Origin: an uncultured Acidobacteriota bacterium
GTDB lineage: Bacteria; Acidobacteriota; Vicinamibacteria; Fen-336
Direction: 5' to 3'
DNA: 64,000 bases
Assembly (NCBI GenBank): GCA_963729875.1
Contig: CAVSPR010000010.1
Location: forward strand, 77,704 to 141,703
Positions 39,718 through 53,155 of this stretch are shown piece after piece. Made by a program: the position numbers and the translations under genes. The notes beneath the pieces were generated by a model. The model made no database searches. It saw only the letters and a list, made by a program, of their open reading frames with translations, and was not told where the DNA came from. Each line of letters opens with the position of its first letter. Position 1 is the first letter of the stretch.

Positions 39718-39721
39718 CGGC

Positions 39722-40132
39722 ATGGCGGGGGTCCTCGTCGACAGCAACGTCCTCCTCGACGTCCTCACCGAGGACCCGGAGTGGTTCGCCTGGTCCTCGG
39801 AGGCGCTCGCGCGCTGCGCCGACGAGTCGGAGCTCGTCGTCAACCCGATCGTGTACGCGGAGGTGTCCGTCGGCTTCGGCCGGGTCGAGGACGTCGAGTC
39901 CGCCCTGCCCCCGGACGCCTTCATCCGCAGCCCGCTGCCGTGGGACGCGGCCTTCCTGGCCGGGAAGTGCTTCCAGGCCTACCGGCGTCGGGGCGGAGCG
40001 AAGCGTTCGCCGCTCCCCGACTTCTACATCGGCGCGCACGCGGCGGTGGCGGGGCTCTCGCTCCTCACCCGCGACCCCGTGCGGTACCGGACGTACTTCC
40101 CCAGGCTCCGGCTCGTCGCGCCTACTTCGTGA
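39722..40132 (+). CDS. vapC: PIN-domain ribonuclease toxin (VapC-type)
   Basis: 136 aa. VLVDSNVLLDVL (first acidic residue), ..NPIVYAEV.., DFYIGAHAAVAGLSLLTRD (conserved Asp pair context). Starts 4 nt after vapB. Confidence 0.85.
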   Translation: MAGVLVDSNVLLDVLTEDPEWFAWSSEALARCADESELVVNPIVYAEVSVGFGRVEDVESALPPDAFIRSPLPWDAAFLAGKCFQAYRRRGGAKRSPLPDFYIGAHAAVAGLSLLTRDPVRYRTYFPRLRLVAPTS

Positions 40133-40152: not shown

Positions 40153-40330
40153 TCACGCCGCCTTGTCGTTGGGGTTGCCCCACTCGAGGTGCTCGCCGAC
40201 CGTGAGCGGCAGGGTCGCGTCCATCATGGTGTTCATCACTTCCACGAAGGGCACCGTCGCGTGGACGGCCCGGAAGAGGTCGGGGCGCAAGTTGGTGACG
40301 GCGCCCATCAGGAGGCCGCTCACGGGGAAG
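40153..40330 (-). pseudogene. Remnant (about 55 codons) of an S9A prolyl-oligopeptidase/oligopeptidase-B-type serine peptidase
   Basis: The minus-strand reading GLLMGAVTNLRPDLFRAVHATVPFVEVMNTMMDATLPLTVGEHLEWGNPNDKAA* matches, from memory, the S9A block that follows the catalytic GGSAGG. The nucleophile Ser motif and the Asp/His part are absent. Confidence 0.5.
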
Positions 40331-41024
40331 CGTCGCTGTCCGCCTCGACCGCCCCGTCGCGCAGCCGGATGATGCGCGTGGCCAGCTCGACCACGCGCGC
40401 GTCGTGGGTGGCGAAGATGAAAGTGACGCTCCGCTCGCGGTTGATGTCCCGCATCAGTCGGACGATGCCGCCGCCGGTCTCGGAGTCCAGGTTCGCGGTG
40501 GGCTCGTCGGCCAGGACCAGGAGGGGGTCGGTGACCAGGGCGCGGGCGATGGCCACGCGCTGGCGCTGTCCGCCGCTGAGCTGGTCGGGCCGGTGCGCGA
40601 GGTGGCTCGCGAGCCCCACGGCCTCGACGGTCTCGCGCACCTTGCGGTCGCGGTCCTTTCGCGCCCGGCCCTTGAGGATGAGCGGGAACTCGACGTTCTC
40701 GTAGACGTCGAACACCGGCACGAGGTTGAAGCTCTGGAAGATGAAGCCGATGGCGTCACGCCGCAGCCGGGTGGCGGCGGCGTCGCTCAGGCGGCTCGTG
40801 GCCTGCCCGTGGACGTACACCTCGCCCTCGGTCGGCACGTCCAGGCAGCCGACGAGGTTGAGCAGCGTCGTCTTCCCCGAGCCGGAGGGGCCGGCCACCG
40901 CCACGAAGCCGCCGCGGGCGATCGAGAGGTCGACGCCTTTCAGGGCCCGGACCCAGGTCTCGCCCAGGCGGTAGGACTTCCGAACCCCGGCGAACCGCAC
41001 GACCGTGTCGGGATCATCGGCCAT
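40320..41024 (-). CDS. ABC transporter ATP-binding protein (MacB/LolD-type)
   Basis: 234 aa. Walker A GPSGSGKTT, Q-loop, signature LSGGQRQRVAIARA, Walker B LVLADEPT. Confidence 0.9.
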   Translation of the reverse strand: MADDPDTVVRFAGVRKSYRLGETWVRALKGVDLSIARGGFVAVAGPSGSGKTTLLNLVGCLDVPTEGEVYVHGQATSRLSDAAATRLRRDAIGFIFQSFNLVPVFDVYENVEFPLILKGRARKDRDRKVRETVEAVGLASHLAHRPDQLSGGQRQRVAIARALVTDPLLVLADEPTANLDSETGGGIVRLMRDINRERSVTFIFATHDARVVELATRIIRLRDGAVEADSDASP

Positions 41025-41032
41025 GGTCGTCC

Positions 41033-42244
41033 TCAGAGGAAGTACCGCAGGGAGAGGGCGAGGCTGCGTCGCACGGCGAGCAGGCCGAACTCGTCGGCCG
41101 CGCTCCCGTAGCGCCAGAAGCCCGTCAGGGCGACCTTGAACCGGCCCGCCGCGCTCCACTCGAGGACGGGCCTCACGTACCCGGAGCCGTCCTCCAGGCT
41201 CGTCAGGCTCACCAGGCCGAGCTTCCACCTCTTCGCGCCGGTGTGGGTGTACGACGCGTGGAGATAGGCGTGGCGCAGCTCCCCGGGCTGGCGGAGCGCC
41301 CCCGCGAGGCCCGCCGCCGGGTCCATCCCGCCCTCCGCCGGCGCGCCGAGGCCGCCGGCGAGGGCCCGGACGCGCTCGAACTCGGCGGCGGAGAGGCCGC
41401 GCGAGTCGTAGAGCACCTCCATCACGAGCAGGCCGTTCCGGAGCGCCTGCCGGTTCACCCCGAGGACCACGAGGCCCCGGACCGCGTCGCTCCGCTTCTC
41501 CACGGGGGGGGCTCCGGCGGCGACGTCCGGTGGTGGCACGGGGTAGATGCGCTGGTCGTTCCAGATGAGGCAACCCTCCGCCTGGACCGTCCACGAGCCC
41601 AGGCCGCGCCGGACCCCGGCCCCGAGCGTGCGCTCGGACTCGGTGCTGCCGAAGGCGTTGACGTAGGCCTCGGTGCCCCCGAAGTAGCCGTCGAGCTGCA
41701 CGCCCGGGAACACGCCGTCGGAGTTCCAGGCCACGACCAGCCGGGGCGTGAGACGGGCGGAGCGGCACCACACGGCGGCGGTCGAGATCCCCTCTGCCAG
41801 GTAGTCGGGCCGCGCCAGGTCGACCTTGGGCTGGGCAAGGAAGGTCGGGTTCCAGTAGTAGGAGTACTGGTCGGGGTAGCGCCGCACGCCCAGCGACGCG
41901 CCGCACTCGGCCGTCGAGAAGGCGAGGTAGGCCTCGTTCAGCTCCCCGGTCAGGCCCCCGAGCCGCGAGACGTCCTCGCCTCCCGCGATGGCGTAGCCGT
42001 CGAAGCGGGCGGTCAGCCGGCGGCTCTCGTCGCCCATCTGGAAGAGAGCCCGCAGGGACAGGGCCGTCTGCACGTCGTCCACGGCCTCGCTGCCGGGGGC
42101 GCCGGGGCTGCCGTCGTTGGCCCTCACCATCCACTCCAGGTCGCCCGACAGGCCCTGGGCGCCGACCGGGGCCGCGCCGGCGAGCGCGGCCACGAGCAGG
42201 CCGACCGCCGCGAGCGAGCGCGCCGCCCCGGGAGGGAAGCTCAC
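41033..42244 (-). CDS. Secreted hypothetical protein, probable outer-membrane beta-barrel
   Basis: The GTG start overlaps the upstream stop (GTGA). Signal peptide ..AGAAPVGAQG. Alternating-polarity strands throughout and C-terminal ..LALSLRYFL. Confidence 0.5.
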   Translation of the reverse strand: MSFPPGAARSLAAVGLLVAALAGAAPVGAQGLSGDLEWMVRANDGSPGAPGSEAVDDVQTALSLRALFQMGDESRRLTARFDGYAIAGGEDVSRLGGLTGELNEAYLAFSTAECGASLGVRRYPDQYSYYWNPTFLAQPKVDLARPDYLAEGISTAAVWCRSARLTPRLVVAWNSDGVFPGVQLDGYFGGTEAYVNAFGSTESERTLGAGVRRGLGSWTVQAEGCLIWNDQRIYPVPPPDVAAGAPPVEKRSDAVRGLVVLGVNRQALRNGLLVMEVLYDSRGLSAAEFERVRALAGGLGAPAEGGMDPAAGLAGALRQPGELRHAYLHASYTHTGAKRWKLGLVSLTSLEDGSGYVRPVLEWSAAGRFKVALTGFWRYGSAADEFGLLAVRRSLALSLRYFL

Positions 42245-43014
42245 CGGAGCGCCTCCACGGAAAGGGCGCCCGGAGGGACCGCGGCCTCCTCCAGCTTCTC
42301 GATGTCGATGACGGAGAAGCTGCCCTCGACCGTGTCGTCCCGCATCTCGATGCGGGTGGGACGCAGCCTCCGGGCGAGGTGCTTCGGTGCGCCGAAGGAG
42401 GCCGTCTTCGTCCGGAGGCCGGACCGCGTGAAGTACTCGAACTGCCGGGGGATGAAGGTCTCGGCGTCCACGACCATCTTGATCGAGGCGTACGTGATCC
42501 GCTCCGTCCGGGCCCGGCAGACGAGGACGTACACGCTCCGGCCGCCGACCACGCTCATCGCCTCCACGCGGCTGTCGTAGTCGTCGGCGTAGGCCGAGTC
42601 CATGAGGTCGCTGTTGGCGAAGCTCGAGTCCATGAAGTCTTCCTTCGCCGAGACCCGCACGACGTTCGGAAGGCCCGGGATCGCGATCCAGATGCTGCGG
42701 TCCCGGAAGAGGTACCTCTTGCCGACCTCGGTGGGGGGTGCGCTGAAGCTCAGCAGGCTGCCCGTGTGCCGGGCCCCCTTGAGGTGGATCCTGAAGGACC
42801 GCTCGCCCAGGCGGGGCTTGTGGTCGGTGAGCGTGAGCTCCATTGTGAACGAGGCGGGGAAGAGCGTCTCGTCCACCCGCGCCAGGACCTCCTCGGCCGT
42901 GAGGGGCGGGTTGCCCTGGGCCGTCCAGCCCGGCGCGAGCGGAAGGGCGAGCACCACCAGCGCGACGACGGCGGCGTGCCGCGACCTGGACCTCATGAAG
43001 GACCTCTCAATCAC
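42241..43014 (-). CDS. LolA-like outer-membrane lipoprotein-sorting/carrier family protein
   Basis: 257 aa with a signal peptide. LTAEEVLARVDE..FTMELTL.......RSFRIHLKG..TGSLLSFSAPPTEVGKRYLFRDRSIWIAIPGL is typical of the LolA_like family, which co-occurs with MacB-type permeases. Confidence 0.7.
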   Translation of the reverse strand: MIERSFMRSRSRHAAVVALVVLALPLAPGWTAQGNPPLTAEEVLARVDETLFPASFTMELTLTDHKPRLGERSFRIHLKGARHTGSLLSFSAPPTEVGKRYLFRDRSIWIAIPGLPNVVRVSAKEDFMDSSFANSDLMDSAYADDYDSRVEAMSVVGGRSVYVLVCRARTERITYASIKMVVDAETFIPRQFEYFTRSGLRTKTASFGAPKHLARRLRPTRIEMRDDTVEGSFSVIDIEKLEEAAVPPGALSVEALR

Positions 43015-44256
43015 GCAGCGCCTCCACGATCCTCAAGCGGCGGGCGCGGAGCGCCCCGCGCAGCCCGCCCAGCCAACCCGCCGTCACCCCGAGCACGGCA
43101 CAGCCCACGTACTCGATGGGCCGGCTGATCGGGTAGAAGCGGGGGCTGACGGGTGTCGAGGACAGCTCCCCGACGTCGGTCGGGATGCCGTGGATCCCGT
43201 AGTACCAGCAGAGGAGCGCGCCCAGCAGGCACCCGGCGAGGGCGCCGAGAGCTCCACGAGGGCCGACTCGGCCGAGACCAGGGCCAGGAGCGTGTTGCGG
43301 GACATCCCGACCGCCCGCAGCGTGCCGAGCTCGCGCGTCCTCTCGAAGACCGTCATCGACATGGAGTTGCTCATGATGAACGTCGAGACCAGGAGCAGCA
43401 CCCCGAAGAAGAGGGTGAGGAAGCGCGTGTCCACGGCGATGTCGGCCACGAGCGCGGGCTCGTAGTGACGCCAGTCGAACGCCTCGGTCGCCGCCGCGAG
43501 CTCGGGCCCGAGGAAGCCGGGGATCGCCCCGAGCACCGCCTTGGTCGCGCCCGGGTCCTCGAGCGCCACCAGCACCTCCGTGGCGCCGTCCCGCATCTCG
43601 AGCAGCTCCCGGGCGAGGGGCAGGGGGACGAAGAACGTCGCCTGGTCGACGGCGCTGAACGGGGGGCGGACGATCCCCACCACCTCGGCCTCGACGATGT
43701 TGGGGACGTCGTGGACGCTCTGGGCATTCAGCCGGACCGTCTGGCCTGGGGCGGCCTCGAGCAGGCGCGCGAGGCGCTCGGTGAGCAGCACCCCCGCGTC
43801 GGACGAGCGCAGGTAGCGCCCGGCCCGGACCCGCTCGGGAAGGAGCGAGAACGCCGCCTCGCGCTCCGGGTCGAAGGCGACACCGTGGCTGCGGAGCTGC
43901 TCCTGCCCCCGGGACAGCGACGCCGGGAAGCGGATGCGCGCGGAGACGAGCCGGACCCCGGGGCGGCCCTGCAGGGCGAGGAGGATCGGGCCGGGGTCGG
44001 CGATGGCCGGCGCGAGCGGCAGCCGTCGGGCGACGGCGTCGTAGCCGCGCGCGTGGATCTGGATGTGCCCGGTCCGGTAGCGCGTGGCCTTGGTCACCCC
44101 GTCGACGATGCGGAAGCGGTAGACGCCGACGAAGAACGCGATCATGGACAGGCAGACGACGAAGGCCGCCATGTCGAGCAGGGTGCGCCTCGGGTTCCGG
44201 CGCACGTTGCGCCCGGCGAGCCCGAGGACGAGCCGGGCGGGTCCCAGGGCTCTCAT
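43007..44256 (-). CDS. FtsX/MacB-type ABC transporter permease, with one frameshift near 43250-43262
   Basis: ORF 43084-44256 carries the N-terminal TM and the periplasmic domain. After ..GMSRNTLLALVSAESALV the frame must shift to read LGALAGCLLGALLCWYYGIHGIP...RRLRIVEALRD* (stop complementary to 43007-43009). Confidence 0.8.
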
Positions 44257-45464
44257 CGGAAGGACAGGGCCTCGATGGGCTTAATCTTCCCGGCCAGCCA
44301 GGCCGGGTAGACGCCCGCCAGGGCCGACACGCCGACCCCGATCACCAGGCAGAAGACGCCGATCTCGGCCGTGAACGCGGGGTGGATCACCCGGGCGATC
44401 CCGTCCAGCTGGGGTCCCATGTCGATGCCCCTGCGCCCCGCCAGGGCGACGACGAGCGCGCCCAGGGCCACTCCGAAGATCGAGCCGACGAGGCCCGTCA
44501 GCCCCGTCTCGGCCACGACGACGCCGGCGATCCCCCACCGCGACATGCCGATCGAGCGCATGGTCCCGAGCGTGCGGACGCGCTCGAAGACCGCGATCAG
44601 GTGCGTGTTCGCGATCCCCGAGACGACGACGCCGACAATGATCGAGAACAGCACGACGATCACGATGTTCACCCAGACGAGCCCGGCCGCGATCTCGGCG
44701 TAGACGTCGCGCCAGGAGTGCACGGCGAGATGCCGCTTCGCCAGCGGCCCCGCGAGCTCGGCCACCACCCGCGCCGTGTCGTCGGCGTCGCGTAGCCGCA
44801 CCAGCACCGCGGTCACGCTCGACCGCACCTGCAGGAGGCGGCGCACGGTGTCGATGGAGGCCAGCGCGAGGTCCTCGTTCTCCTCGGTCTTGTCGGTCCG
44901 GTAGATCCCGGCCACGACCACGCTCACGGCGTTGAGGCCCCCGTTGGGGTTGTAGGCCAGGAGGGTCAGCCGGTCGCCCACCTTCAGTCCCAGGTAGCGC
45001 GCGAGCCCCCAGCCGAGGACGACGCTTCCGTCGGAGGCCGGGAAGGCGCCGTCCACGATCGCCTGGCGATAGCGTCGGTTCCACGCCGCATCGCCGACGT
45101 CGATGCCACGGAGCATCACCTCCGCGGAGCGCTCGCCGCTCAGCAGCCGGGCCCCGCACGCCAGCTCGACGGTCGCGCCCGACACGTCGGGGCGCCCGCG
45201 CAGCGCTTCGAGGAGGGGCGCGGGGTCGTCGATGGCCAGGTGAACGGGCAGCATCGCGGCCCTCTCGCGGTAGCCCTCCCGCTCCACCGTGACGTGGCCG
45301 ACCGTGTCGAAGGCCAGCTCCATGAACATGCGCCTCATGCCGATGAGGAGCGCGAGCGCAGAGGTGAGCGCGGCGATGCTCAGGGCCATGGCCACGACCA
45401 CGCCCATCGACCTCCGCCGGTCCCGCAGGGCGTGGCGCCAGGCGACCTTCAGAACCATGGCCAT
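44253..45464 (-). CDS. FtsX/MacB-type ABC transporter permease
   Basis: Intact 403 aa with the same architecture. The C-terminal FtsX block is RVRTLGTMRSIGMSRWGIAGVVVAETGLTGLVG. Its stop overlaps the downstream start (ATGA). Confidence 0.85.
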   Translation of the reverse strand: MAMVLKVAWRHALRDRRRSMGVVVAMALSIAALTSALALLIGMRRMFMELAFDTVGHVTVEREGYRERAAMLPVHLAIDDPAPLLEALRGRPDVSGATVELACGARLLSGERSAEVMLRGIDVGDAAWNRRYRQAIVDGAFPASDGSVVLGWGLARYLGLKVGDRLTLLAYNPNGGLNAVSVVVAGIYRTDKTEENEDLALASIDTVRRLLQVRSSVTAVLVRLRDADDTARVVAELAGPLAKRHLAVHSWRDVYAEIAAGLVWVNIVIVVLFSIIVGVVVSGIANTHLIAVFERVRTLGTMRSIGMSRWGIAGVVVAETGLTGLVGSIFGVALGALVVALAGRRGIDMGPQLDGIARVIHPAFTAEIGVFCLVIGVGVSALAGVYPAWLAGKIKPIEALSFR

Positions 45465-45474
45465 CGCGCTCTCT

Positions 45475-46664
45475 CTAGGCCACCGGCGCCGCCGGCGCCG
45501 GGCGCGCCGTCGAGAGGGGGCGCCAGTCGCACGCCAGCGCGAAGTCGATGCAGCGCCTGAACAGCTCGTAGTCGAAGGGCGGACAGCGCACGCCGGCCGC
45601 CTCGAGGACCCGGTCGGCGCGCGTGGTGTCGAAGAGGCGCGTGTCCTTCAGGTAGGGCCGGTAGACGTCGATGTCCTTCTCGAACCGCTCCTCGAGAGCG
45701 GTCTTGGGCGCCGCGAGGAACGTCTCCGACGGGCAGGCCGCGGGACCCGTCAAGCGGAAGTAGCGCGACGTGTAGGCGACGAGGTCGGCCACCGAGGAAG
45801 GCCGCTTGTTGACGAGGTGGTAGATGCCGGGCTCGGCGTCCGAGGCGATCACGGCGAGCACGGCGTCGACGACGAAGTCGATGGGCACGAGGTTCAGGAC
45901 CCCTCCCCCGGGGGGCCCGTGTCCAGCCGCACCGGCACGTCGAGCGTGCCGTCCTCGCGCAGGTGGACCCCCATCTCGGCGGCGAGCCGCCCCTCGTTCT
46001 GGTCGATGTCCATTCTCAGGAGGTCGAGGATGTATCGCGAGAACCGGACGGGGTAGTACATGGCGTTGAAGAGCAGGGTCCGCCCGTCCGCGGAATCGCC
46101 CACGATGATCGAGGGCCGATGGACGTACACCGGGACGTGGCGGCGCCGGCCGAAGTCCAGGACCATCTTCTCGGCCTCGAGCTTCGATTCCTCGTAGGAG
46201 TTGTGGAAGCCCGGCGGGTCCTCGATCGCCTCGGCGCAGAGCCCGTCCCGACGGCCGGACACGAAGGCCGTGCTCATGTGGTGGAGGGAGCGGAGGGGCG
46301 CGGCCTCCGCCAGCTCGAGCAGGTGGGCCGTGCCCTCGACGTTCGAGGCGTAGATCTGCGCCCGCTTCGTCTCCTCGAAGGTGGTCGCCGCCGCGCAGTT
46401 CACGATCCCGTCCAGGCGGCGGGCGAGACGCGTGAAGGCGGCCGGGCTCAGGCCGAGCCCGGGCCGGGCGAGGTCGGCCTGCACCAGCTGGACGCGGGAG
46501 GCCTCGCTCGCCCCGTGCCAGCGCAGGACGCGCTCCAGCCGCTTCCGCGCCGGGTGGTTCTCGCGGGAGCGGACGAGCGCCGCCACGCGATGGCCCGCCC
46601 GGAGGAGAGCCACGGTGAGGTAGGAGCCCACGAACCCGGCGGCGCCCGTGACCAGAAACCTCAT
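45475..46664 (-). CDS. Thioester-reductase / fatty-acyl-CoA-reductase-type extended SDR (NAD_binding_4-like), with one frameshift near 45890-45900
   Basis: MRFLVTGAAGFVGSYL (Rossmann), ..HHMSTAFVSG.., NSYEESKLEAE (YxxxK). The C-terminal part (PIDFVVDAVLAVI..) lies in ORF 45475-45888. The frame break falls in the run CCCCTCCCCCGGGGGGCCC. Confidence 0.75.
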
Positions 46665-48532
46665 CTTCGGCCCCCGAAGAGATAGGTCGCGGGGCGGCTC
46701 AGCCCGTGCAGCCGGACGGACTCGCCCGAGCAGACGAAATCGGGGCCCGCGCACAGCTCGCGCTCGGTCTCCGCCGCCTCCTTCATGGCCGCGCGGACCT
46801 CCCGGACCTGGCGCGGGTCGGTGGCGTCGAAGTACAGGTCGTACTCCATCACCGCCCGCGTGCCGTCCGCCAGCGGGACGAGGTAGCCGAACGCGTGGGG
46901 GAGGCCGTGACGCTCGCCGATCTCCCCCAGGCGCTCGCAGGCCCGGGGCACGGCCCCCGGCTCGTCCAGCGAGCAGTAGAGGACGCGCGACACGAACTGG
47001 TGCCCGCGCCCCATCCGCGCGGGGAGGATGCGGAAGAGGTTGAGCCAGACGGAGTCGGCCGTCTCCGGCCGCCGGAGGAAGGCCTCGAAGAAGCCCCGCA
47101 GGTCCGCGTCGACACCGTCGTCGGGCACGCAGGCCCGCGCCCGCAGCGCCATCTCGACGAGCGGGCGCAGGCCGGGGGCGAAGAGCTCCTTGTAGCGCGC
47201 CTCCCCGCCGCCCTGCTCCATCATCCACTGGAGCTCGGGGTCGCGATCGAGGCTCGGGAGGGCTCGCAGCAGCAGGCCGCCCAGGGCGCGGCTCAGCACC
47301 GGCCCGGCGAACGACGGGATGGCGGCGAGGACGCTGCGGTCGCCGATGCACACGACGAAGGCCCGCACGCCGAGGCCGTCCTCGAGCGCCCTGCGGATCC
47401 GCGGGACGGCCGCCGGGCTGGGGGCGGCGAACATCGACACGTACGCCGTGCCCATCACCCCCAGGCCGGTCCCGATCCGGCGCCGGGCGATGTCCCTCGC
47501 GACCGCTACCGCCTCCTCTAGGCTGCCGCAGGGGACGAAGACGCAGTCCTCGTCGGGAGGGGCGGGGTGGAGCCGGATCTCCATCTCCGTGCAGATCCCG
47601 GCCTCGGCCGCGGACCGCGCGCCGGGAAGGGAGACCAGGTTGGGCGCGTCGGGGTCGCTCAGCCGGTACACGCGGCCGGTCGGGTCGACGAGCTCCGCGT
47701 CCACCACGTGGTCGATGCCCACGCCCCAGGCGTAGGACAGGAAGGAGTGCATGTTGGTGCACAGGACGTTGGCGCAGACGCAGGCTGCGGGCTCGGCCAC
47801 GCTGGCCCACATGCCGACCTTCACCGCTGCCGCCTGCAGGTCGAAGGCGAGGACCCCGGGTCCGACCGTGGCGGTCCAGCGGGGGCGGTCGATGCTCAGG
47901 CCGTTCATTCGCGCGAGGTCGATCACCAGGCCGTCGCTCAGCGCGCCCGCGAGGCTCGTCCCCGCGCCCCGGGCCGCGAAGGGGATCTCCCGGTGCCGGC
48001 AGGTCCGGACCAGGGAGGCGACCTCGGCGGTGGATCCGGGCAGGGCCACGTAGCGCGGCGGCGTCTCCTCGGCGAGGGGCGAGCGGGCCCAGCCGTAGCT
48101 CGCGAGGATCGCCGGGTCGGCGCTCACCCAGCCCCGCCCCACGCAAGCGACGAGCTCCGCGAGCACGGGATCCGCGCCCTGGCCGGCGGCGGGAGCGGCA
48201 AGCGTCGCCACCTCCTCCTTGAAGGCCTGGAACAGGCGCAGCGAGCGGATGCCGGCGGTGAAGTAGCACTGCTTGTCGCAGACCCCGCACTCCGTGCAGG
48301 AGCGGGCCACCTCCAGGAGGCCGTCCGTGACCGGCAGGGCGCCCCGGCGGAACGCGCCGATCACCCGCATCCGGCCCTGGGGATAGAAGGCGGCGAAATG
48401 CCGCTCCCGGCCCACGGGGCAGACGCCGATCCCCAGGAAGTCGATGCGGCACATCCCATAGCCGGGACAGCGGTCGGCGGCCTCCGCCTGCCGGGCGAAG
48501 CCGCTCGTCGGTCGCACGGCGACGGAGCTCAC
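46661..48532 (-). CDS. FAD-linked oxidase (FAD_binding_4/PCMH-type) with an N-terminal Cys-rich, Fe-S-like segment
   Basis: The probable GTG start at 48532 overlaps the SCP2 stop (GTGA); an alternative ATG is at 48454. Cys cluster CPGYGMCRIDFLGIGVCPVG...CTECGVCDKQCYF. FAD-binding block PRYVALPGSTAEVASLVRTCRHREIPFAARGAGTSLAG. The stop overlaps the reductase start (ATGA). Confidence 0.65.
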   Translation of the reverse strand: MSSVAVRPTSGFARQAEAADRCPGYGMCRIDFLGIGVCPVGRERHFAAFYPQGRMRVIGAFRRGALPVTDGLLEVARSCTECGVCDKQCYFTAGIRSLRLFQAFKEEVATLAAPAAGQGADPVLAELVACVGRGWVSADPAILASYGWARSPLAEETPPRYVALPGSTAEVASLVRTCRHREIPFAARGAGTSLAGALSDGLVIDLARMNGLSIDRPRWTATVGPGVLAFDLQAAAVKVGMWASVAEPAACVCANVLCTNMHSFLSYAWGVGIDHVVDAELVDPTGRVYRLSDPDAPNLVSLPGARSAAEAGICTEMEIRLHPAPPDEDCVFVPCGSLEEAVAVARDIARRRIGTGLGVMGTAYVSMFAAPSPAAVPRIRRALEDGLGVRAFVVCIGDRSVLAAIPSFAGPVLSRALGGLLLRALPSLDRDPELQWMMEQGGGEARYKELFAPGLRPLVEMALRARACVPDDGVDADLRGFFEAFLRRPETADSVWLNLFRILPARMGRGHQFVSRVLYCSLDEPGAVPRACERLGEIGERHGLPHAFGYLVPLADGTRAVMEYDLYFDATDPRQVREVRAAMKEAAETERELCAGPDFVCSGESVRLHGLSRPATYLFGGRR

Positions 48533-48897
48533 GGGAGCCCCCCCCCGGCGCCGCCGGCCCGCGCCGCCTCCTTCGCCGAAGCGGAGAGGATGGCGGCGAA
48601 CCGCAGGACGTCGAACAGGCTGCCCGAGGTGCGGATGAGCCCCTGCATCTTCGCCTCCAGCGGGTTCAGGGTCCCCGCCATCAATCGGTCCAGCGTGCCT
48701 TCGTCGAGCTCGAAGAAGGGTGAGGCGTCGTCGGCCGCCGGACCGAGCGAGGCCCGGCCCCCGTCGATCAGAAGGTGGATGCGTTCGGCCCCGATCGCGA
48801 GGCCGACGCACCTGTCCCAGCCCCGCAGCATGCGTCCCACGGAATCGCTCCGGTTGGCGGCCTCGACCAGCAGCCCGACCTTGCCCGCGGCGTCCAC
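48529..48897 (-). CDS. SCP2 (sterol-carrier-protein-2) domain lipid-binding protein
   Basis: 122 aa. ..FELDEGTLDRLMAGTLNPLEAKMQGLIRTSGSLFDVLRF is the canonical SCP2 C-terminal helix pattern. Confidence 0.7.
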   Translation of the reverse strand: MDAAGKVGLLVEAANRSDSVGRMLRGWDRCVGLAIGAERIHLLIDGGRASLGPAADDASPFFELDEGTLDRLMAGTLNPLEAKMQGLIRTSGSLFDVLRFAAILSASAKEAARAGGAGGGLP

Positions 48898-48916
48898 GAT
48901 CGATGCCTCCCCGCCC

Positions 48917-50371
48917 TCACGCCGTGACCGGGGCTTCGAGGTAGGCGTTCACGTCGACCTCCTCCATCCAGCGGGTGTCGGACCGCGTCAGGCGATGGCC
49001 GTGGCCCTTCTTGCGGGTGGCGTCGATGCCCGTCTTCACGGAGAAGTCCCCCACCCGGGCGGCGTCGGTCAGCTCGCCGGTCGCTTCCAGCACCACGACG
49101 TCGCGGGTGGCGACCACCCGCGTGTCCACCGCCCACTGCACGTCCTGCGGGTCGTAGATGTCCACGTCGGTGTCGACCACCACGATCCGCTTGAGCCGCG
49201 CGGAGAAGGCGAACAGCCCGCGGATGAGATCGAGGGGCTCGCTCTCGCTCCGCTTGTCGACCGCCACCACGAGCCCGGTGCCGGGCACGCCGGGCAGCAC
49301 GAAGAGGTCCTTCACGTTGGGGGAGATCAGGGAGACGAACCGCCGGGTCTTCGCGAGTTCGGTCATGTTCAGGGGGAGGATGAGCGACACCATCTCGAGC
49401 GACGTGCAGACCAGGCTGTGGAAGACGGGGGCCTCCCGCCGGCGCACGGCCGTGACGTTCACGCAGAACCCCTCGGTGGCCTGGCTGGCGATGAGGTCGT
49501 ACTCGGTGAACGGCCCCTCGCGGACCCGCTCGTCCGGGTCGATCGTTCCCTCGATCAGGAACTCGGCGTCGGCCGGCACGGGCAGGTCGACGGTGAGCCC
49601 CCGCGCCACCTCGTAGGGAGCGCCCTGGAGCGCACCGGCCACCGCGAGCTCGCTCTGGCCGAAAGGCACGCTCATGGTGGCCGCGACGAGCAGGGAGGGC
49701 GCGACGCCGACCGCGATCGCGACCTCCAGCCGCTTCCCCTGCCGCGACGCGCCGTAGAGGATCGACAGGAGGTCCCGCCTGGCGTTGACCATGATGGCCA
49801 GCCGCCGCTCGTCGAGCAGCTGGATGCGGTAGATGCCGGCGTTCAGATGGCCGGTGGCGTCGTCCCGGGCGATGGTGACGGCCGTGGTGAGGTAGGGACC
49901 GGCGTCCTCGCGGAAGTACCAGGAGGCAGGGACGAGCCGCGGGACGTCCACCTCCCGGTCCACGACGGTGTGCTCCCATTGGCCGCCGGCGGCCACGGGC
50001 TCGATCGGATGCGCCAGCGCCCCCATGACCGCGGCCTCCAGCTCCCGGTAGAGGCCCAGGAACATCGGGTTGGTCGCCCAGACGGGGTAGACGATGCCGG
50101 GCTTGCGAAGCCCCGCGTAGAGGCCGGCCAGCTCCGGCTGCATCGGGATGGTGGGGAGGACGCCCGTTCGCAGCGGCATGAGGAACAGGTTGCCGGCGGC
50201 CGTCACGCCCGGGTGGCCCACGATCTGCTCGAAGAGAACGGCCTTGCGGAGCGTCCTCTCCACCTGCCACTGGACCGCCGCCATCTCGTGCCGGGTCTCG
50301 ACCGGCCGCCGGACGCGGACCAGGTGCCCCAGGTCCTCGAGCTCCTCGATGTACTCTCGCAGGCCATTCAT
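48917..50371 (-). CDS. UbiD-family (prFMN-dependent) decarboxylase
   Basis: Intact 484 aa. Contains LFEQIVGHPG, NAGIYRIQLLDERRLAIM, GQSELAVAGALQGAPYEV, AEFLIEGTIDPDERVREGPFTEY and the C-terminal UbiD fold. Confidence 0.85.
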   Translation of the reverse strand: MNGLREYIEELEDLGHLVRVRRPVETRHEMAAVQWQVERTLRKAVLFEQIVGHPGVTAAGNLFLMPLRTGVLPTIPMQPELAGLYAGLRKPGIVYPVWATNPMFLGLYRELEAAVMGALAHPIEPVAAGGQWEHTVVDREVDVPRLVPASWYFREDAGPYLTTAVTIARDDATGHLNAGIYRIQLLDERRLAIMVNARRDLLSILYGASRQGKRLEVAIAVGVAPSLLVAATMSVPFGQSELAVAGALQGAPYEVARGLTVDLPVPADAEFLIEGTIDPDERVREGPFTEYDLIASQATEGFCVNVTAVRRREAPVFHSLVCTSLEMVSLILPLNMTELAKTRRFVSLISPNVKDLFVLPGVPGTGLVVAVDKRSESEPLDLIRGLFAFSARLKRIVVVDTDVDIYDPQDVQWAVDTRVVATRDVVVLEATGELTDAARVGDFSVKTGIDATRKKGHGHRLTRSDTRWMEEVDVNAYLEAPVTA

Positions 50372-50390
50372 GGCCGAGGCTCCCCGGGGG

Positions 50391-51209
50391 TCAGATCAGT
50401 CTGCCGAGCTCGGACCCCCGTCTCTCGTTGCGATACTCGGACAGCATCTCCGTCGAGATCTCCACCTTGTCCCGGAGCCACGCGAGCGCCTTGCGGTTGA
50501 ACTCCAGGTACGGCTCGAAGGGAAGGCGGTACCCCAGGGAGTGGATGAGCGACATCACGACGCCCAGGCACACCGGCTGCGCGCGGTAGCTCGTGGCGTA
50601 GTCGGACTTGTGTCCTCCGTCGCCGAGCACGTTCATCTCGTGGAGCTCCTGCGACGTGCTCTTGTGGACGGCGCCCTCGAGCTCCTCCGGGGAGAGGTAC
50701 TTGACGAGATCGAAGAGGTCGTCGCCGACGTAGTCGACCACCGGGTGCTCGAGGGTGATGCCGAACGCGCGATACAGCTGGTCGATCATCTCCAGCCCCT
50801 TGCGCGTCTGGTCGACCCACAGGGCCATGGTGATGTTCGCGCCGTCGAGCACGTGGGCGACGTCGTTGTCGAGGCAGTACATGATCGTCCGCACGTGCAT
50901 CCCCATCCGGCAGTGCAGGCAGAGGGAGGCCTCCATGAGCCCGTGCCGGAGCACGGAGCGGAGCTGCTTCTTCGTCAGGATCTTCTCGATCACCGCCCCG
51001 GCCGGCATCATCACGTGCGTGAAGCGCACGCCCGGGAACGCCTCCCGCAGGCGGGGCACGTTCCGCCCGGCGAACTCGTCCAGGCACGAGACGGGGACCT
51101 CGTAGGTGAGGAGGACGATCTCCTCGAACCGGCCCGACCGGGCGGCCTTGGCGGCGGCGAGCGTGCAGTCGGAGCCGCCGGAGAAGAGCACGACCGCCCT
51201 CGCGCTCAC
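50391..51209 (-). CDS. PP-loop (adenine nucleotide alpha-hydrolase superfamily) ATPase-like protein, function unknown
   Basis: The N-terminal VVLFSGGSDCT resembles the SGGxDS PP-loop. An internal CLHC motif is present. The GTG start overlaps the upstream stop (GTGA). Confidence 0.55.
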   Translation of the reverse strand: MSARAVVLFSGGSDCTLAAAKAARSGRFEEIVLLTYEVPVSCLDEFAGRNVPRLREAFPGVRFTHVMMPAGAVIEKILTKKQLRSVLRHGLMEASLCLHCRMGMHVRTIMYCLDNDVAHVLDGANITMALWVDQTRKGLEMIDQLYRAFGITLEHPVVDYVGDDLFDLVKYLSPEELEGAVHKSTSQELHEMNVLGDGGHKSDYATSYRAQPVCLGVVMSLIHSLGYRLPFEPYLEFNRKALAWLRDKVEISTEMLSEYRNERRGSELGRLI

Positions 51210-51421
51210 GCCGCCCCCCTTCCCGGTTTCGCCTGCTCGATGATGTCGAACATCACGCGAAAGAACTCGTACCGCCTCCAGACCGGCAGCCGGGCGAGGG
51301 CGAGCGCGAACCGGCTCTTCAGCCGGATCGTCGGGATCAGCACGAAGGTCGAGAGGACGAGGAAGCTGAGCGCGGCTCTCCCCACCCTGACCGTCCTGTG
51401 GGGAGAGATCATCTCTTCCAT
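51206..51421 (-). CDS. Small single-TM protein, first gene of the 11-gene operon (hypothetical)
   Basis: 71 aa from the ATG complementary to 51419-51421: MEEMISPHRTVRVGRAALSFLVLSTFVLIPTI... The stop is coupled to the next gene. No recognisable family. Confidence 0.35.
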   Translation of the reverse strand: MEEMISPHRTVRVGRAALSFLVLSTFVLIPTIRLKSRFALALARLPVWRRYEFFRVMFDIIEQAKPGRGAA

Positions 51422-51589
51422 GCTGTGAGCCCCCGCCGGAGGGTTCTCGTGTGCCTCACTGAACGCCCAAGGCGCCGGCAACCTCAATAGTGCAAGTGGA
51501 CTACGCACCGCCGGGGACGGCACGACTCACTGCTATTCTTGGTCCGCCTCGAGTCGCCGTCGGGTGCGCGTGGACGAAGGAGGGCCAGT

Positions 51590-53155
51590 GTGGGCAAGAA
51601 GATGAAGAGCGCGGGACCGCCGCCGGCCCCGCCCGGCACGCCGGTCCCGGCGGCGGGCGCTGCGTCGCGGGCCCTCCTGCTCCTCGCCCCGCTCCTCTCC
51701 GGCGCGGCCATCATGGGGCTCGAGCTCGTCGGCCTCCGGCTCCTCGCCCCGCGCTTCGGCGCCTCGACGTACGTGTGGGGAGGGCTCCTCGGGACGATCA
51801 TGGCGGCGCTCGCCGTCGGCTACCTGCTCGGCGGGGCGCTGGCCGACCGGCGCCCGCGCCCCGCGTGGGTCTTCGGGCTCCTCGTCGCGGGCGGGGCCTG
51901 GGTGGCGGGGAGCCTCCTGGTCACGGAGGCGGTCCTCGACGCGGCCGAGCGGCTCGGCGCCACCCTGGGCCCCCTCCTCGCGACCGGCGTTCTCCTCGGG
52001 CCCCCCATGCTCCTGCTCGGCTCGGTGTCCCCCTTCGTCATCCGGCTCGAGGCCCAGCTCTCCTCCCTCGGGGTCACCGCCGGGCGCGTCTTCGCCCTGT
52101 CGACCGCGGGCAGCCTCGCCGGCACGTTCGTCGCGGCCTTCTGGTGGATCCCGGATTACGGGTGCCGTCACACGCTCCGGATCCTGGTCGCCGCGCTGGT
52201 GGTGCCGGGGATGCTGGGGCTCGCCTGGCCGCGCTCCCGCGCCGCGAGGGCGGCGGCGGCCCTCGTTCTCGCCGCCCTCCCCCTCCTGGCGCCGGACGCG
52301 CCGCTCCCGCCGGGCATCGTCTTCGCCGAGGAGTCCCCCTACAACACCGTCTTCGTCGAGAAGCAGGGAGAGAACACGCTGCTGCGACTCAACGACCCCA
52401 GGCGCGGCTTCCACTCGGTGCAGCTGGGGCGGGGAATGCTCACCGGGGCCTACTACGACGTCCTCTACCTCGGCCCGCTCCTCGCGCAGGGAAGGGACGT
52501 GCTGGTCCTGGGGATGGGCGGAGGGACGACGGTGCGCGCCTACCGCCGCTTCTACCCCGGCGCCCGCGTGAGCGCGGTCGAGATCGACCCCGTGATCGTC
52601 CGGGTCGCGCACGAGTTCATGGGCGTCGCGCGCGGCCCCGACCTCGACGTGCACGTCGAGGATGCCCGGCCGTTCCTGAAGCGGGGGAAGAGCGCCTTCG
52701 ACGTGATCGAGGTCGACCTCTTCGCGGGCGGCCCGTACGCGCCCTTCTACTGCCTGACCCGGGAGTTCTTCGAGGCGGTGCGGGCGCGGCTCGAGCCCTC
52801 CGGCCTCGTCTCGATGAACGTCTACGCGCCCGGCGGCGACCGCACGCTCGCCGAGGCCGTCGTGGCTACCCTGGCCGCGGTGTTTCCCACCGTCCTGGAG
52901 TTCCCGCTCGCCGAGGAGCGGGTGCTGATCGCGTTCAGGGAAGAGACCTCTCTGGATCGGGTCCGCGCGCTTCTCTCCGACCCCGCCCTGCCCGAGGAGC
53001 TCGGAGCCGTCGCGCGTGAAGCGACGGTCGCGCTGCGACCGGCGACGCCCGGCCGCGGGGCCGTTCTGACCGACGACCGCGCCCCCGTCGAGCCGCTGAC
53101 GCACGCGATGATCGTCCGCCGGGACCTCCTTCGCGAAGGGAGCCGTCGGCACTGA
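51590..53155 (+). CDS. Fused membrane domain / spermidine-synthase-like protein (second paralogue in the window)
   Basis: Start is GTG 51590 or ATG 51602. N-terminal TM helices (LLSGAAIMGLELVGLRLLAPRFG). C-terminal domain DVLVLGMGGGTTVRA..VSAVEIDPVIV..FDVIEVDLF..PFYCLTREFFEAVRARLEPSGLV. Confidence 0.8.
   Translation: MGKKMKSAGPPPAPPGTPVPAAGAASRALLLLAPLLSGAAIMGLELVGLRLLAPRFGASTYVWGGLLGTIMAALAVGYLLGGALADRRPRPAWVFGLLVAGGAWVAGSLLVTEAVLDAAERLGATLGPLLATGVLLGPPMLLLGSVSPFVIRLEAQLSSLGVTAGRVFALSTAGSLAGTFVAAFWWIPDYGCRHTLRILVAALVVPGMLGLAWPRSRAARAAAALVLAALPLLAPDAPLPPGIVFAEESPYNTVFVEKQGENTLLRLNDPRRGFHSVQLGRGMLTGAYYDVLYLGPLLAQGRDVLVLGMGGGTTVRAYRRFYPGARVSAVEIDPVIVRVAHEFMGVARGPDLDVHVEDARPFLKRGKSAFDVIEVDLFAGGPYAPFYCLTREFFEAVRARLEPSGLVSMNVYAPGGDRTLAEAVVATLAAVFPTVLEFPLAEERVLIAFREETSLDRVRALLSDPALPEELGAVAREATVALRPATPGRGAVLTDDRAPVEPLTHAMIVRRDLLREGSRRH

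Follow-up and report, generated by a model that had tools for sequence, protein, structure and literature searches.

A tightly packed acidobacterial operon that joins UbiD-family, flavoprotein and thioester-reductase genes to a Lol-like cassette: possible tailoring and export of an envelope lipid

The window analysed here is a stretch of 64,000 nucleotides from an uncultured Acidobacteriota bacterium, in which eleven genes (G1 to G11) follow one another on the minus strand between 40320 and 51421. The whole run is coding, with a GC content at third codon positions (GC3) of 0.83–0.97 per gene. A preliminary description of this DNA had claimed tight packing, and every overlap that it gave was found in place on the minus strand: GTGA at 51206–51209, 48529–48532 and 42241–42244, ATGA at 46661–46664 and 44253–44256, and 8 nt at 43007–43014 (GTGATTGA). 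The other junctions within the block are gaps of 19, 19, 10 and 8 nt. The block is bordered by a divergent plus-strand gene from 51539 and by convergent plus-strand genes up to 40132. The 117-nt divergent intergenic region between G1 and the gene at 51539 (51422–51538) is the presumed promoter region, in which neither a sigma-70-like site nor an Rfam match was found. The tight packing is real, and the eleven genes probably form one operon. Operons of a genome with 72% GC are ordinarily packed in this way, and plus-strand gene pairs nearby in the window likewise show 4-nt overlaps or 4-nt spacing; it is the gene combination, rather than the spacing, that is notable. The preliminary description recognised no described pathway in this combination, and no characterised cluster matching the block was found in Pfam, NCBIfam, the PDB or the literature.

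The first gene, G1 (51206–51421, minus strand), encodes a small single-pass membrane protein of 71 aa with no family match in Pfam or NCBIfam searches. It is kept at 40–55% identity, always directly upstream of a homologue of the next gene (L085–L088; L numbers denote the loci compared), and the pair also occurs alone in L085. G2 (50391–51209, minus strand, 272 aa), which it overlaps by GTGA, was described earlier as a PP-loop ATPase. Its SGGxD motif and remote profile matches to YcfA and QueC speak for this, but neither Pfam nor NCBIfam returned a match. About 20 close homologues are likewise without domains, and distant ones carry DUF7411/QueC. The family keeps LFSGGxDxT, C97, C100, C214, D122 and Q134 invariant, and its profile matches YcfA (9kq6, an AANH enzyme) in the PDB with E 2e-14 and QueC with E 2e-3. 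Thus, on motif and family profile, G2 would be a divergent PP-loop (AANH) adenylating enzyme that shares its PP-loop, together with an Asp and a Gln that are invariant, with YcfA (6-thioguanine) and QueC; these two residues may correspond to YcfA Asp19 and Gln129 (PMC12494993). In contrast to both enzymes, G2 stands outside the Pfam and NCBIfam families and is marked by three Cys that are invariant and by a small membrane protein as obligatory partner; unlike YcfA, it has no YcfC-like lyase nearby.

The assignment of G3 (48917–50371, minus strand, 484 aa) to the UbiD family of prFMN-type decarboxylases/carboxylases is well founded. It has the UbiD_N, UbiD and UbiD_C domains of Pfam, exceeds the TIGR00148 cutoff (247.5 bits against 244.85), keeps the active-site motifs LNAGIYR, SELAVAG and EGPFTE, and is 63–69% identical to its orthologues in L001 and L089. 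The best PDB match is 6h6v (E 7e-60; '3-polyprenyl-4-hydroxybenzoate decarboxylase and related decarboxylases'), which we take to be HmfF, followed by E. coli UbiD (1e-37). G4 (48529–48897, minus strand, 122 aa) had been named an SCP2 lipid-binding protein. The gene itself stays under the Pfam threshold for PF02036 (E 1.2e-3), but its orthologues in L086 and L088 match SCP2, and in L089 an SCP2 domain is fused to the UbiD C-terminus (residues 499–598, 44% identity to G4), so that we keep the designation SCP2-like.

The following two genes constitute a sharply delimited part of the enzyme set. G5 (46661–48532, minus strand, 623 aa) is an iron-sulfur flavoprotein formed by a Cys-rich N-terminal domain, a VAO/PCMH-type FAD domain and a novel cap, as read from Pfam, the family alignment and an AF2 model (pLDDT 85.8). 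The FAD_binding_4 match (97.8 bits, with a weak Fer4_8) and seven invariant N-terminal Cys (C22, C28, C38, C79, C82, C85 and C89) agree with the FAD-linked oxidase with a Cys cluster announced earlier. The nearest folds are D-2-hydroxyacid dehydrogenases and 4-alkylphenol oxidases, and the family is sharply bounded, members scoring 377–784 bits and the next matches falling to 63 bits. G6 (45475–46664, minus strand, about 395 aa) is a stand-alone thioester-reductase-type SDR, again as proposed. Its sequence, repaired for a frameshift, matches NAD_binding_4 with 152.7 bits, shows the motifs TGAAGFVG and YEESK, and has as nearest PDB chains the reductase domains of PKS/NRPS enzymes, MxaA (4u7w, 1e-23) and 8v1x. 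Together, G5 and G6 define a sharp, unnamed family present in 307 species representatives, mainly in anaerobic lineages, in which the G6 homologue lies directly downstream of the G5 homologue in 76 of the 84 loci. The pair is preceded by a FabF-like KS and an ACP in L001 and L089, and by a full type II FAS/PKS-like set in L090. These neighbours, combined with the resemblance of G6 to PKS/NRPS reductase domains, fit a reductive release of an acyl thioester.

The second half of the operon is a Lol-like cassette. The two FtsX permeases and the ABC ATPase of the preliminary description are all recognised by Pfam. G7 (44253–45464, minus strand, 403 aa) and the repaired G8 (43007–44256, minus strand, about 416 aa) both contain MacB_PCD and FtsX domains and are type VII ABC permeases with 29% identity to each other. 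G11 (40320–41024, minus strand, 234 aa) matches ABC_tran (109.7 bits) and carries recognisable Walker A, signature, Walker B and H-loop elements. G7 scores 101 bits on the lolCE model (cutoff 362), with LolE, LolC and LolF as best PDB matches (1e-9 to 1e-11); G11 is LolD/DevA-like, with 225 bits on LolD (cutoff 308) and 217 bits on DevA (cutoff 296). The LolC/E and LolD scores are far under the equivalog cutoffs, so that, judged by NCBIfam, the cassette is distinct from the housekeeping Lol system. G9 (42241–43014, minus strand, 257 aa), with a signal peptide and no lipobox Cys, belongs to the LolA superfamily, as had been suggested (PF17131, 103.5 bits; PDB 3BUU, 'LolA superfamily protein NE2245', E 2e-20), and would be a periplasmic carrier. 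The outer-membrane barrel that had been proposed for G10 (41033–42244, minus strand, 403 aa) is still a guess. The signal peptide, the beta-rich sequence and the aromatic-rich R/K-Y/F-Y/F-F/L C-termini of the family favour it, but Pfam, NCBIfam and PDB searches gave no match and the AF2 model (pLDDT 37) is unusable. A search of 1.84 billion representatives gave only 46 relatives of G10 at E<=1e-3, and the gene sits between the LolA-like and ABC ATPase genes in every relative with readable context; we consider G10 an orphan secreted protein and a candidate outer-membrane component.

Two of the eleven genes, G6 and G8, are not continuous open reading frames, and these breaks had gone unnoticed. 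G6 is split into 45894–46664 and 45475–45888 by a 1-nt shift between 45900 and 45897, within the run GAGGGGTCC, as mapped by comparison with L089. G8 begins in a frame that covers 43084–44256 and ends at 43007 in another one, with a 1-nt shift near 43250 (GTGG^AGC); its alignment with the L089 orthologue, 62% identical and intact, changes frame at 43207–43255. A decaying operon, with real frameshifts and with the reductase and one permease as pseudogenes, would also leave such breaks, and of the three frameshifts mapped to date, two lie within this 11-kb block. We think that this is very unlikely. Both breaks are single-base changes in G runs, and downstream of each one GC3 stays above 0.9 and the 47–62% identity to intact orthologues continues undiminished; the orthologues of both genes in L001 and L089 are unbroken. 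Moreover, a TonB-type receptor at 13646–16767 is split likewise, positions 1–9000 are a patchwork of frames, and UbiD of L001, the nearest relative, is broken in a similar way. All this fits indel errors of assembly, which are the likelier cause of both breaks because the breaks are located in G runs and one or more further genes of the window are broken too.

As far as sequence comparison goes, the block is made of modular, separable units. Co-conservation, which the preliminary description had named as its check, gives a mixed answer. Nine of the genes, UbiD, SCP2, G5, G6, FtsX, FtsX, LolA-like, G10 and ABC ATPase, are arranged identically in the window (72% GC), L001 (60% GC) and L089 (62% GC), with 38–69% protein identity. 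In the wider families, however, the modules are independent. UbiD with SCP2 and the small membrane protein with the PP-loop enzyme join G5-G6 only in the closest clade, and the five genes from the first permease to the ATPase form a portable cassette, a fact that strengthens the case for Lol-like export, which is plausible. Two unrelated adjacent units, a cytoplasmic metabolic one (G1–G6) and a general Lol-like envelope system for lipoprotein or bulk lipid trafficking (G7–G11), would be another explanation. Beside Fur-FeoAB and PFK (L095), and again beside MoeA (L093), the cassette is found with unchanged gene order and without lipid genes in the vicinity; the G5-G6 pair lacks an exporter in 80 of the 84 loci, and G1-G2 are also found by themselves. 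Nevertheless, we regard this explanation as unlikely. The same adjacency is preserved in three genomes whose GC contents lie as much as 12 points apart; in the window 10 nt separate the enzyme genes from the export genes, in L089 the corresponding junctions are 4-nt overlaps, and the unbroken coding with 4–8 nt overlaps that spans the enzyme/export boundary counts for a single operon. Furthermore, L086 has recruited an independent FtsX-type exporter (ABC, a 787-aa FtsX and an MFP) to the same enzymes, in L092 the cassette follows a type I PKS and a B12-rSAM gene and precedes a PPTase, and the scores far under the Lol equivalog cutoffs also speak against a general system.

In our opinion, the block is best read as one operon of three separable modules by which a hydrophobic compound derived from a carboxylate or thioester is tailored and delivered to the outer membrane, a proposal that we hold with about even confidence. 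Which genes are present, how they are ordered and conserved, and that they form modules can be seen directly in the sequences; the substrate, all the catalytic steps and the place of G10 in the cell are deduced in this scheme. G6 would release or reduce an acyl or aryl thioester, bound to ACP or CoA, to the aldehyde or alcohol, and G5 would then perform an O2-independent redox step on this product, with electrons passing via its N-terminal clusters. The prFMN enzyme G3 might remove or add a carboxyl on an aromatic or alpha,beta-unsaturated acid, the lipid tail being held by G4, and G2 with its membrane partner G1 could adenylate a carbonyl or carboxyl oxygen for substitution by S or N. Finally, G7, G8 and G11 would act as a LolCDE-like type VII ABC extractor, G9 as the LolA-like periplasmic carrier and G10 as the presumed outer-membrane acceptor. 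The order of the steps is not obvious, since reductase and decarboxylase would both target the carboxyl terminus, and the succession put forward in the preliminary description, from activation via decarboxylation and oxidation to reduction of a carboxylate held on SCP2, gains no specific support.

The same enzymes might alternatively belong to a pathway, independent of O2, that yields a quinone-like lipid or a methylated phenolic one, with UbiD, UbiX and SCP2 acting as in late ubiquinone/menaquinone steps, G5-G6 providing redox steps and a redox lipid of the outer membrane as product. The nearest clade indeed has UbiD, UbiX and SCP2 (of the UbiJ/UbiT fold class), with UbiX lying within the cluster in L086 and L087. 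In other phyla, G5-G6 neighbours pass the UbiE/MenG model TIGR01934 (225 bits against 158; 20 loci) and the UbiG model TIGR01983 (156 against 103; 12 loci); the G5 fold resembles 4-alkylphenol oxidases, which work via quinone methides, and multihaem cytochromes lie 2 kb from the block. Even so, we find this decidedly unlikely. G3 is far under the NCBIfam equivalog cutoffs for UbiD, MqnL and VdcC, none of the loci examined showed a prenyltransferase, and the KS/ACP and FASII neighbours suggest acyl chemistry; UbiE-like methyltransferases and B12-rSAM enzymes are also found in unusual non-quinone FASII lipid clusters (PMC2649909). Compared with ubiquinone biosynthesis, the pairing of a UbiD-family enzyme with an SCP2 lipid binder is shared, but UbiA-type prenyltransferase and hydroxylases are absent here, and the FeS flavoprotein and thioester reductase have no place in known quinone pathways.

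UbiD-family carboxylases and FeS flavoproteins function in the anaerobic degradation of aromatics. A catabolic module for attack on aromatics or lipids by UbiD-type carboxylation, activation and reduction, with the ABC system serving uptake or detoxification, could thus be imagined, and the mainly anaerobic distribution of G5-G6 would suit it. We judge it highly improbable, as the neighbours are biosynthetic (KS, ACP, PPTase, AT, DH, KR, methyltransferases) and CoA ligase, ring reductase and beta-oxidation genes are absent from the block. In addition, FtsX/MacB-type ABC systems are described as extractors or exporters, not importers (PMC12646458; PMC5985334).

Returning to tailoring and export, a precedent for a LolA-like chaperone within a lipid gene cluster is given by the aryl-polyene clusters, in which ApeL (LolA-like), ApeM (RND) and ApeN (LolB-like) place the product in the outer membrane (PMC8253772). 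The present operon resembles them as a specialised lipid cluster with its own Lol-like machinery, and the G5-G6 relatives in L090 are preceded by an ApeI-like dehydratase and a type II KS set. The extractor, however, is a two-permease type VII ABC system instead of an RND protein, the candidate acceptor is an orphan 400-aa secreted protein instead of a DUF3261 lipoprotein, the window lacks KS/CLF, ACP, acyltransferase and glycosyltransferase, and its UbiD, SCP2, FeS flavoprotein, thioester reductase and PP-loop enzyme are not aryl-polyene components. Like LolCDE-LolA, it combines a pair of distinct FtsX-type permeases, whose periplasmic domains are MacB-like, with a single ATPase and a soluble protein of the LolA superfamily, LolE, LolC and LolF being the best PDB matches of G7 and LolD the best NCBIfam match of G11. 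It differs in its scores (101 and 66 bits against 362, 225 against 308), in a carrier of the PF17131 (3BUU) type, not canonical LolA, and in an extra orphan gene and the embedding in an enzyme operon. DevBCA-HgdD exports a polyketide/fatty-alcohol lipid that is released reductively, the heterocyst glycolipid, by means of a dedicated ABC exporter of the FtsX type. The operon would resemble it in this respect, and the DevA score of G11 and the exporter of L086 agree with such a likeness. Unlike DevBCA-HgdD and MacAB-TolC, the window block has a soluble LolA-like carrier and no membrane-fusion protein or TolC-like duct. The Borrelia BBJ23-BBJ29 cluster, itself a predicted export system, has an Omp85-family barrel, a homodimeric permease and no biosynthetic enzymes attached.

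Several points weaken the tailoring and export reading: the cassette also occurs without lipid genes, the enzyme modules are mostly without exporter in the genomes surveyed, UbiX, KS, ACP, prenyltransferase and acyltransferase are all absent from the eleven-gene block, the barrel fold of G10 has no usable model behind it, and two genes are frameshifted as sequenced. In its favour count the nine genes in the same order, the UbiD-SCP2 fusion, the constant G5-G6 pairing, the independent exporter in L086 and the PKS-linked cassette in L092, together with the kept UbiD active-site motifs and the UbiX of the relatives. The enzyme set is conserved but unstudied. On balance, we think that the best reading is a specialised operon for the tailoring and export of an envelope lipid, which would be analogous to the aryl-polyene or heterocyst-glycolipid systems.

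The eleven genes G1 to G11 lie on the minus strand of the window between positions 51421 and 40320, and codon-position GC indicates that minus-strand coding is unbroken from the first to the last of these positions, in a window of about 72% GC. The preliminary description had claimed six overlaps between these genes, all of which are exact on the minus strand: GTGA at 51206–51209, 48529–48532 and 42241–42244, ATGA at 46661–46664 and 44253–44256, and GTGATTGA at 43007–43014. The four other junctions are gaps of 19, 19, 10 and 8 nt. The block is a discrete unit, bounded upstream by a divergent plus-strand gene that starts at 51539 and downstream by a convergent plus-strand MazE/PIN pair that ends at 40132. 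It is a genuine operon, with a tight spacing that is ordinary for operons of such genomes. No riboswitch or other RNA was matched in the window at Rfam gathering thresholds. A scan of the window for promoters gave no candidate site and a scan for terminators gave a single one versus 2.3 expected by chance, both scans being uninformative at 72% GC.

Several other genes of the window deserve mention. The divergent neighbour of the operon (51539–53155, plus strand) and a second gene (24410–26674, minus strand) encode membrane-protein/spermine-synthase-like fusions, one of them with an MFS domain. The convergent pair at its 3' end (39493–40132, plus strand) consists of a MazE-type antitoxin and a PIN-domain toxin. 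At 36047–39402 (plus strand) a GatE-like gene, with a GatB_N catalytic domain and a large insertion, overlaps by 4 nt a following GatD-like gene with asparaginase domains and GatD_N, the two being an archaeal-type Glu-tRNA(Gln) amidotransferase pair in an otherwise bacterial-looking window. A plus-strand run at 53409–62280 encodes a multihaem cytochrome (53409–54602), a 729-aa protein without family, a CsgG-like protein, a PPIase-domain protein and a second multihaem cytochrome (60337–62280) with 10 paired-CXXCH stretches and MtrC/MtrF-like matches. Lying 2 kb from where the operon starts, this run is a possible locus of extracellular electron transfer. At 10093–13630 (plus strand), the gene of a WD40-repeat protein comes after that of an nSTAND1 NTPase (235 bits).

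The packing of the eleven genes is as first described, whereas their reading frames are not all continuous, since G6, the thioester reductase gene, and G8, the second FtsX permease gene, are each broken, which had been missed. G6 consists of two ORFs (45894–46664 and 45475–45888), and the frame in which G8 starts is not the one in which it ends, at 43007. When the two genes are set against their unbroken orthologues at a related locus, L089, the breaks fall at 45897–45900 in G6, in the run GAGGGGTCC, and near 43250 in G8, at GTGG^AGC; both amount to one base within a G run. An operon in decay might be read from these breaks. Past both of them, the coding signal persists with 47–62% identity to intact orthologues, and similar breaks are seen elsewhere. 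A TonB-type CarboxypepD_reg/OMP_b-brl_4 receptor (13646–16767, plus strand) is likewise split by a frameshift near 15400, its N-terminal part covering model positions 150–391 and its C-terminal part, in another frame, reaching position 835 of 838. Window positions 1–9000 (plus strand) are a frame patchwork with SdrD_B, DUF11 and Peptidase_C25 fragments, and the UbiD orthologue of the related locus L001 (8136–9758) has a frameshift near residue 385, its gene call being a fragment of 125 aa. The assembly of the window appears to hold many indels, and we read the split receptor, the patchwork and the L001 break as signs that assembly indel errors in G6 and G8 are likelier than decay.

The conserved core of the block is the pair formed by G5 and G6, because a G6 homologue lies directly downstream of G5 in 76 of 84 loci. 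The G5 family is sharply bounded, with about 100 matches at 377–784 bits followed by a fall to 63 bits, and its members are annotated solely as hypothetical, ferredoxin or FAD-binding proteins. A scan of species-representative genomes gave 307 relatives, mainly in anaerobic lineages, spanning Aminicenantes, Bacteroidales, Desulfobacterota, Dehalococcoidia, Spirochaetes, Planctomycetes, Nitrospirota and NC10; a Methanophagales (ANME-1) archaeon carries two copies of the pair (L006 and L008). G5 is a flavoprotein of the VAO/PCMH superfamily by its FAD_binding_4 domain (97.8 bits) and by the two-domain fold of a confident AF2 model (pLDDT 85.8). In Foldseek searches this model is nearest to D-2-hydroxyacid dehydrogenases (LDHD, E 1e-18), then to 4-alkylphenol oxidases and PCMH (4-ethylphenol oxidase and PCMH, 1e-17). 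Sequence profiles align over the FAD domain only. The cap domain is new at the sequence level, and no match to the FAD-oxidase_C cap (PF02913) was found. An assignment as glycolate oxidase GlcD or D-lactate dehydrogenase was rejected, given 50 bits versus a glcD cutoff of 568, the missing PF02913 and the lack of an invariant His in the C-terminal half. The N-terminal domain of about 100 residues carries seven invariant cysteines (C-x5-C-x9-C ... C-x2-C-x2-C-x3-C).

G6, once repaired, is by its sequence a stand-alone extended SDR of the thioester-reductase type (R-domain or FAR-type). It matches NAD_binding_4 at 152.7 bits, keeps TGAAGFVG (TGxxGxxG) and YEESK (YxxxK), and has PKS/NRPS reductase domains as its nearest structures (MxaA R domain, E 1e-23). 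Its TIGR01746 score of 143.5 bits is under the cutoff of 213.35, and its ORF is broken in this assembly. A FAR enzyme beside an AGPS-like one would bring ether lipids to mind, an idea that is unsupported here: the match of G5 to AGPS chains is confined to its FAD domain (E 2e-16) and weaker than that to LDHD/GlcD, and AGPS is absent from the top 50 Foldseek matches. The FeS domain of G5 moreover argues for redox chemistry.

The decarboxylase candidate G3 scores above the Pfam thresholds for UbiD_N, UbiD and UbiD_C (44.6, 174.2 and 64 bits) and, with 247.5 bits, barely above the TIGR00148 cutoff of 244.85. Its closest solved structure is 6h6v (E 7e-60), and its LNAGIYR, SELAVAG and EGPFTE stretches align with the corresponding motifs of 6h6v and of E. 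coli UbiD. These stretches hold the conserved Asn/Arg, Glu and EGPF-x-E motifs, and we take their roles to be those of metal/prFMN binding and of the catalytic Glu-Arg-Glu set of Fdc1 and UbiD. By these sequence matches, G3 is a member of the UbiD family of prFMN-dependent (de)carboxylases. It was rejected as a specific orthologue of UbiD (140 versus an equivalog cutoff of 788), of MqnL (mena_SCO4490, 165 versus 496) and of VdcC (212 versus 650). A tblastn search of the 64-kb window gave no UbiX-type flavin prenyltransferase; UbiX is encoded within the clusters of L086 and L087. The SCP2 match of G4 is weak (PF02036, 19.6 bits, threshold 21.3), and its orthologues in L086 and L088 do match SCP2. 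In L089 (1116–2939) UbiD and the SCP2-like protein are fused into one of 607 aa with the SCP2-like part at the UbiD C-terminus; its residues 1–477 share 69% identity with G3, and its residues 499–598 share 44% with G4.

Neither Pfam nor NCBIfam gives a match for G2. Its family has an invariant PP-loop (LFSGGxDxT), three Cys, one Asp and one Gln, and the family profile matches YcfA (E 2e-14) and QueC (E 2e-3), so by its PP-loop and its similarity to members G2 is probably a PP-loop ATP pyrophosphatase of the AANH superfamily. YcfA is the adenylating AANH enzyme of 6-thioguanine biosynthesis (PMC12494993). G1 is a conserved membrane protein of 67–89 aa that is always encoded directly upstream of a G2 homologue. 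A role of G1, G2, G9 and G10 in anti-phage defence was discarded when PADLOC gave no matches for them.

The export genes encode a LolCDE-like set: a pair of dissimilar FtsX permeases, a single ATPase and a soluble partner with the LolA fold. G7 and G8 are distinct MacB_PCD+FtsX permeases, 29% identical to each other, with LolE, LolC and LolF as best PDB relatives, and G11 is a LolD/DevA-like ABC_tran protein. They were rejected as LolCDE equivalogs, all three being far under the NCBIfam cutoffs (101 and 66 bits versus 362 for lolC/LolE, and 225 versus 308 for LolD). G9 is a LolA-superfamily protein (PF17131; 3BUU, E 2e-20) with a signal peptide and no lipobox; no lipobox protein occurs among the eleven products. 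A tripartite pump of the MacAB-TolC type was also dismissed, since none of the eleven products has an MFP domain; a membrane-fusion protein was seen only in the relative L086, as part of a different FtsX-type exporter.

Most family assignments of the preliminary description were right, and one to be softened is that of G10 as an outer-membrane barrel. G10 matches no family in Pfam or NCBIfam and no PDB entry. An exhaustive HMM search among 1.84 billion representative proteins was needed for finding 46 relatives at E≤1e-3, as a word-based homologue search gave three proteins only and a metagenome scan returned three loci; no Pfam domain was found in any of ten relatives tested. The signal-like N-terminus, the mostly beta-strand predicted secondary structure and the aromatic-rich family C-termini, ending in Y/F-Y/F-F/L, describe a protein that might be such a barrel, and we go no further than this hypothesis because the AF2 model, built on three sequences, is unusable (pLDDT 37).

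Across relatives, the block is no widely conserved eleven-gene unit; three uncharacterised modules, each conserved, have been brought together in a lineage-specific way. The remainder of the block joins G5–G6 in the closest clade only. The closest syntenic MAG, and a CarboxypepD_reg receptor of a kind typical of the phylum, suggest an Acidobacteriota-like source for the window. The closest relative, L001 (Acidobacteriota MAG MFD05942.bin.2.47, 60% GC), and L089 (62% GC) have the order KS, ACP, UbiD, SCP2, G5, G6, DUF523-like, FtsX, FtsX, LolA-like, G10, ABC; nine genes are common to them and to the window, in the same order and with 38–69% identity, and their KS is FabF-like (545 bits versus a cutoff of 494). 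The more distant L086 to L088 keep SCP2–G5–G6 and UbiD (G5 identity of 47–49% for L087 and L088), together with G1–G2, a GFO/IDH/MocA oxidoreductase, a cupin, a multi-TM protein and UbiX as extra genes. G1–G2 stands alone in L085 (7690–10831), without UbiD, G5 or G6 and divergent from a 608-aa Peptidase_U32/DUF3656 protein. One clade further out, in L090 (43% identity; 1338–11977), G5–G6 closes a full type II FAS/PKS-like set of KR, nitroreductase, ACP, PPTase, FabA, KS, FabA/ApeI-like, AT and KS genes and is followed by BioY and a biotinyl-domain protein; its G5 protein (P0008) was found on 15 contigs. The window itself has no UbiX, KS, ACP or transferase. In relatives the pair stands beside KS, ACP and FAS genes, and a catabolic module is an unlikely alternative reading of the block.

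The cassette FtsX–FtsX–LolA-like–G10–ABC is portable, as it recurs in the same order in organisms of 39–44% GC. On a metagenome contig of 42% GC (L092, 1–11736) its neighbours are a type I PKS (more than 2894 aa) and a B12-radical-SAM gene on the upstream side and a PPTase downstream, in L095 it comes after Fur-FeoAB, and in L093 and L096 it lies on two short contigs. A metabolic module might thus merely adjoin a general Lol-like system, and the weak points of a joint function are that the cassette also occurs in contexts without lipid genes and that most carriers of G5–G6 have no exporter. On the other side, two kinds of FtsX-type exporter have been recruited independently to the same enzymes.

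Taking all together, we think that the block is most likely an operon whose products tailor and export some hydrophobic compound, and the pathway first outlined, with activation, decarboxylation, oxidation and reduction of a carrier-held carboxylate before its export, is plausible. The genes present, their order and conserved motifs, the UbiD–SCP2 fusion, the KS, ACP and FAS genes near the pair and the two independently recruited exporters are observed; the substrate, the product, the order of the reactions and the place of G10 are what we infer. G2, with G1, would activate a carbonyl or a carboxylate by adenylation so that S or N can be substituted, while G3 would decarboxylate or carboxylate an aromatic or unsaturated acid whose hydrophobic tail G4 would hold. 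G6 may reduce or release an acyl or aryl thioester, and G5 may carry out an O2-independent flavin/FeS redox step on its product. G7, G8 and G11 would then pull the product out of the inner membrane, G9 would carry it across the periplasm and G10 would take it up. A difficulty of this scheme is that reductase and decarboxylase would compete for one carboxyl terminus.

The compound might instead belong to a quinone-like or phenolic redox-lipid pathway. This is made attractive by the Ubi-type neighbours of G5–G6 in other phyla, where, among 80 loci (L005 to L084), only three types recur: UbiE/MenG-family methyltransferases (20 loci; 225 bits versus a cutoff of 158), UbiG-like methyltransferases (12 loci; 156 versus 103) and B12-radical-SAM proteins (7 loci; nearest to the "lipid biosynthesis" model TIGR04072). 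Both methyltransferase types score above NCBIfam cutoffs, including in Bacteroidales, Aminicenantes and sulfate-reducer lineages. However, no prenyltransferase was seen in any locus, and UbiE-like methyltransferases and B12-radical-SAM enzymes are carried by unusual FASII clusters as well (PMC2649909). Papers on methyl-plastoquinone and futalosine mention no G5- or G6-like genes. We regard as improbable, but worth stating, a bolder version in which G5–G6 is the core of a widespread, undescribed and O2-independent pathway by which anaerobes would build a redox lipid, either methylated phenolic or quinone-like, helped by proteins of the UbiE, UbiG, UbiD, UbiX and SCP2 types. In this Acidobacteriota-like organism, a dedicated Lol-like cassette that includes a new family of outer-membrane proteins would place the lipid in the outer membrane, and the lipid might serve the nearby multihaem cytochromes.

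For a tailoring-and-export operon, several known systems offer comparison. DevBCA exports heterocyst glycolipids, and by the DevA-model score of G11 it is an analogue. Aryl-polyene clusters, with LolA-like, RND and LolB-like proteins of their own, are the closest concept (PMC8253772). The block was rejected as an aryl-polyene cluster: KS/CLF, ACPs, ApeI/ApeP dehydratases and acyltransferases are absent from it, and of ApeL, ApeM and ApeN it has only a LolA-like analogue. The predicted BBJ23-29 set of Borrelia is a further analogue (PMC13078400). From all three, the block differs in extractor type, carrier family, acceptor and enzyme set. By NCBIfam scores, it is not an equivalog of LolCDE, MacAB, UbiD, MqnL, VdcC, GlcD or the thioester reductase, and we class it as a variant among the specialised-lipid clusters that have a Lol-like path to the outer membrane.

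A literature search for the combination of UbiD, LolA, thioester reductase and FtsX found nothing, and three things were not found described: the module of an FeS VAO-type flavoprotein and a stand-alone thioester reductase, present in at least 307 species representatives from many anaerobic phyla; the pair of a small transmembrane protein and a YcfA/QueC-like PP-loop protein; and the five-gene Lol-like cassette, built round an orphan secreted family for which fewer than 50 relatives can be detected among 1.84 billion representative proteins. Should the quinone-like interpretation hold, the finding would bear on anaerobic quinone and redox-lipid biosynthesis. If an envelope lipid is made and exported, the block would provide a handle on the transit of specialised lipids to the outer membrane in non-proteobacterial diderms, and would give a testable function to a large family of "hypothetical FAD-binding oxidoreductases".
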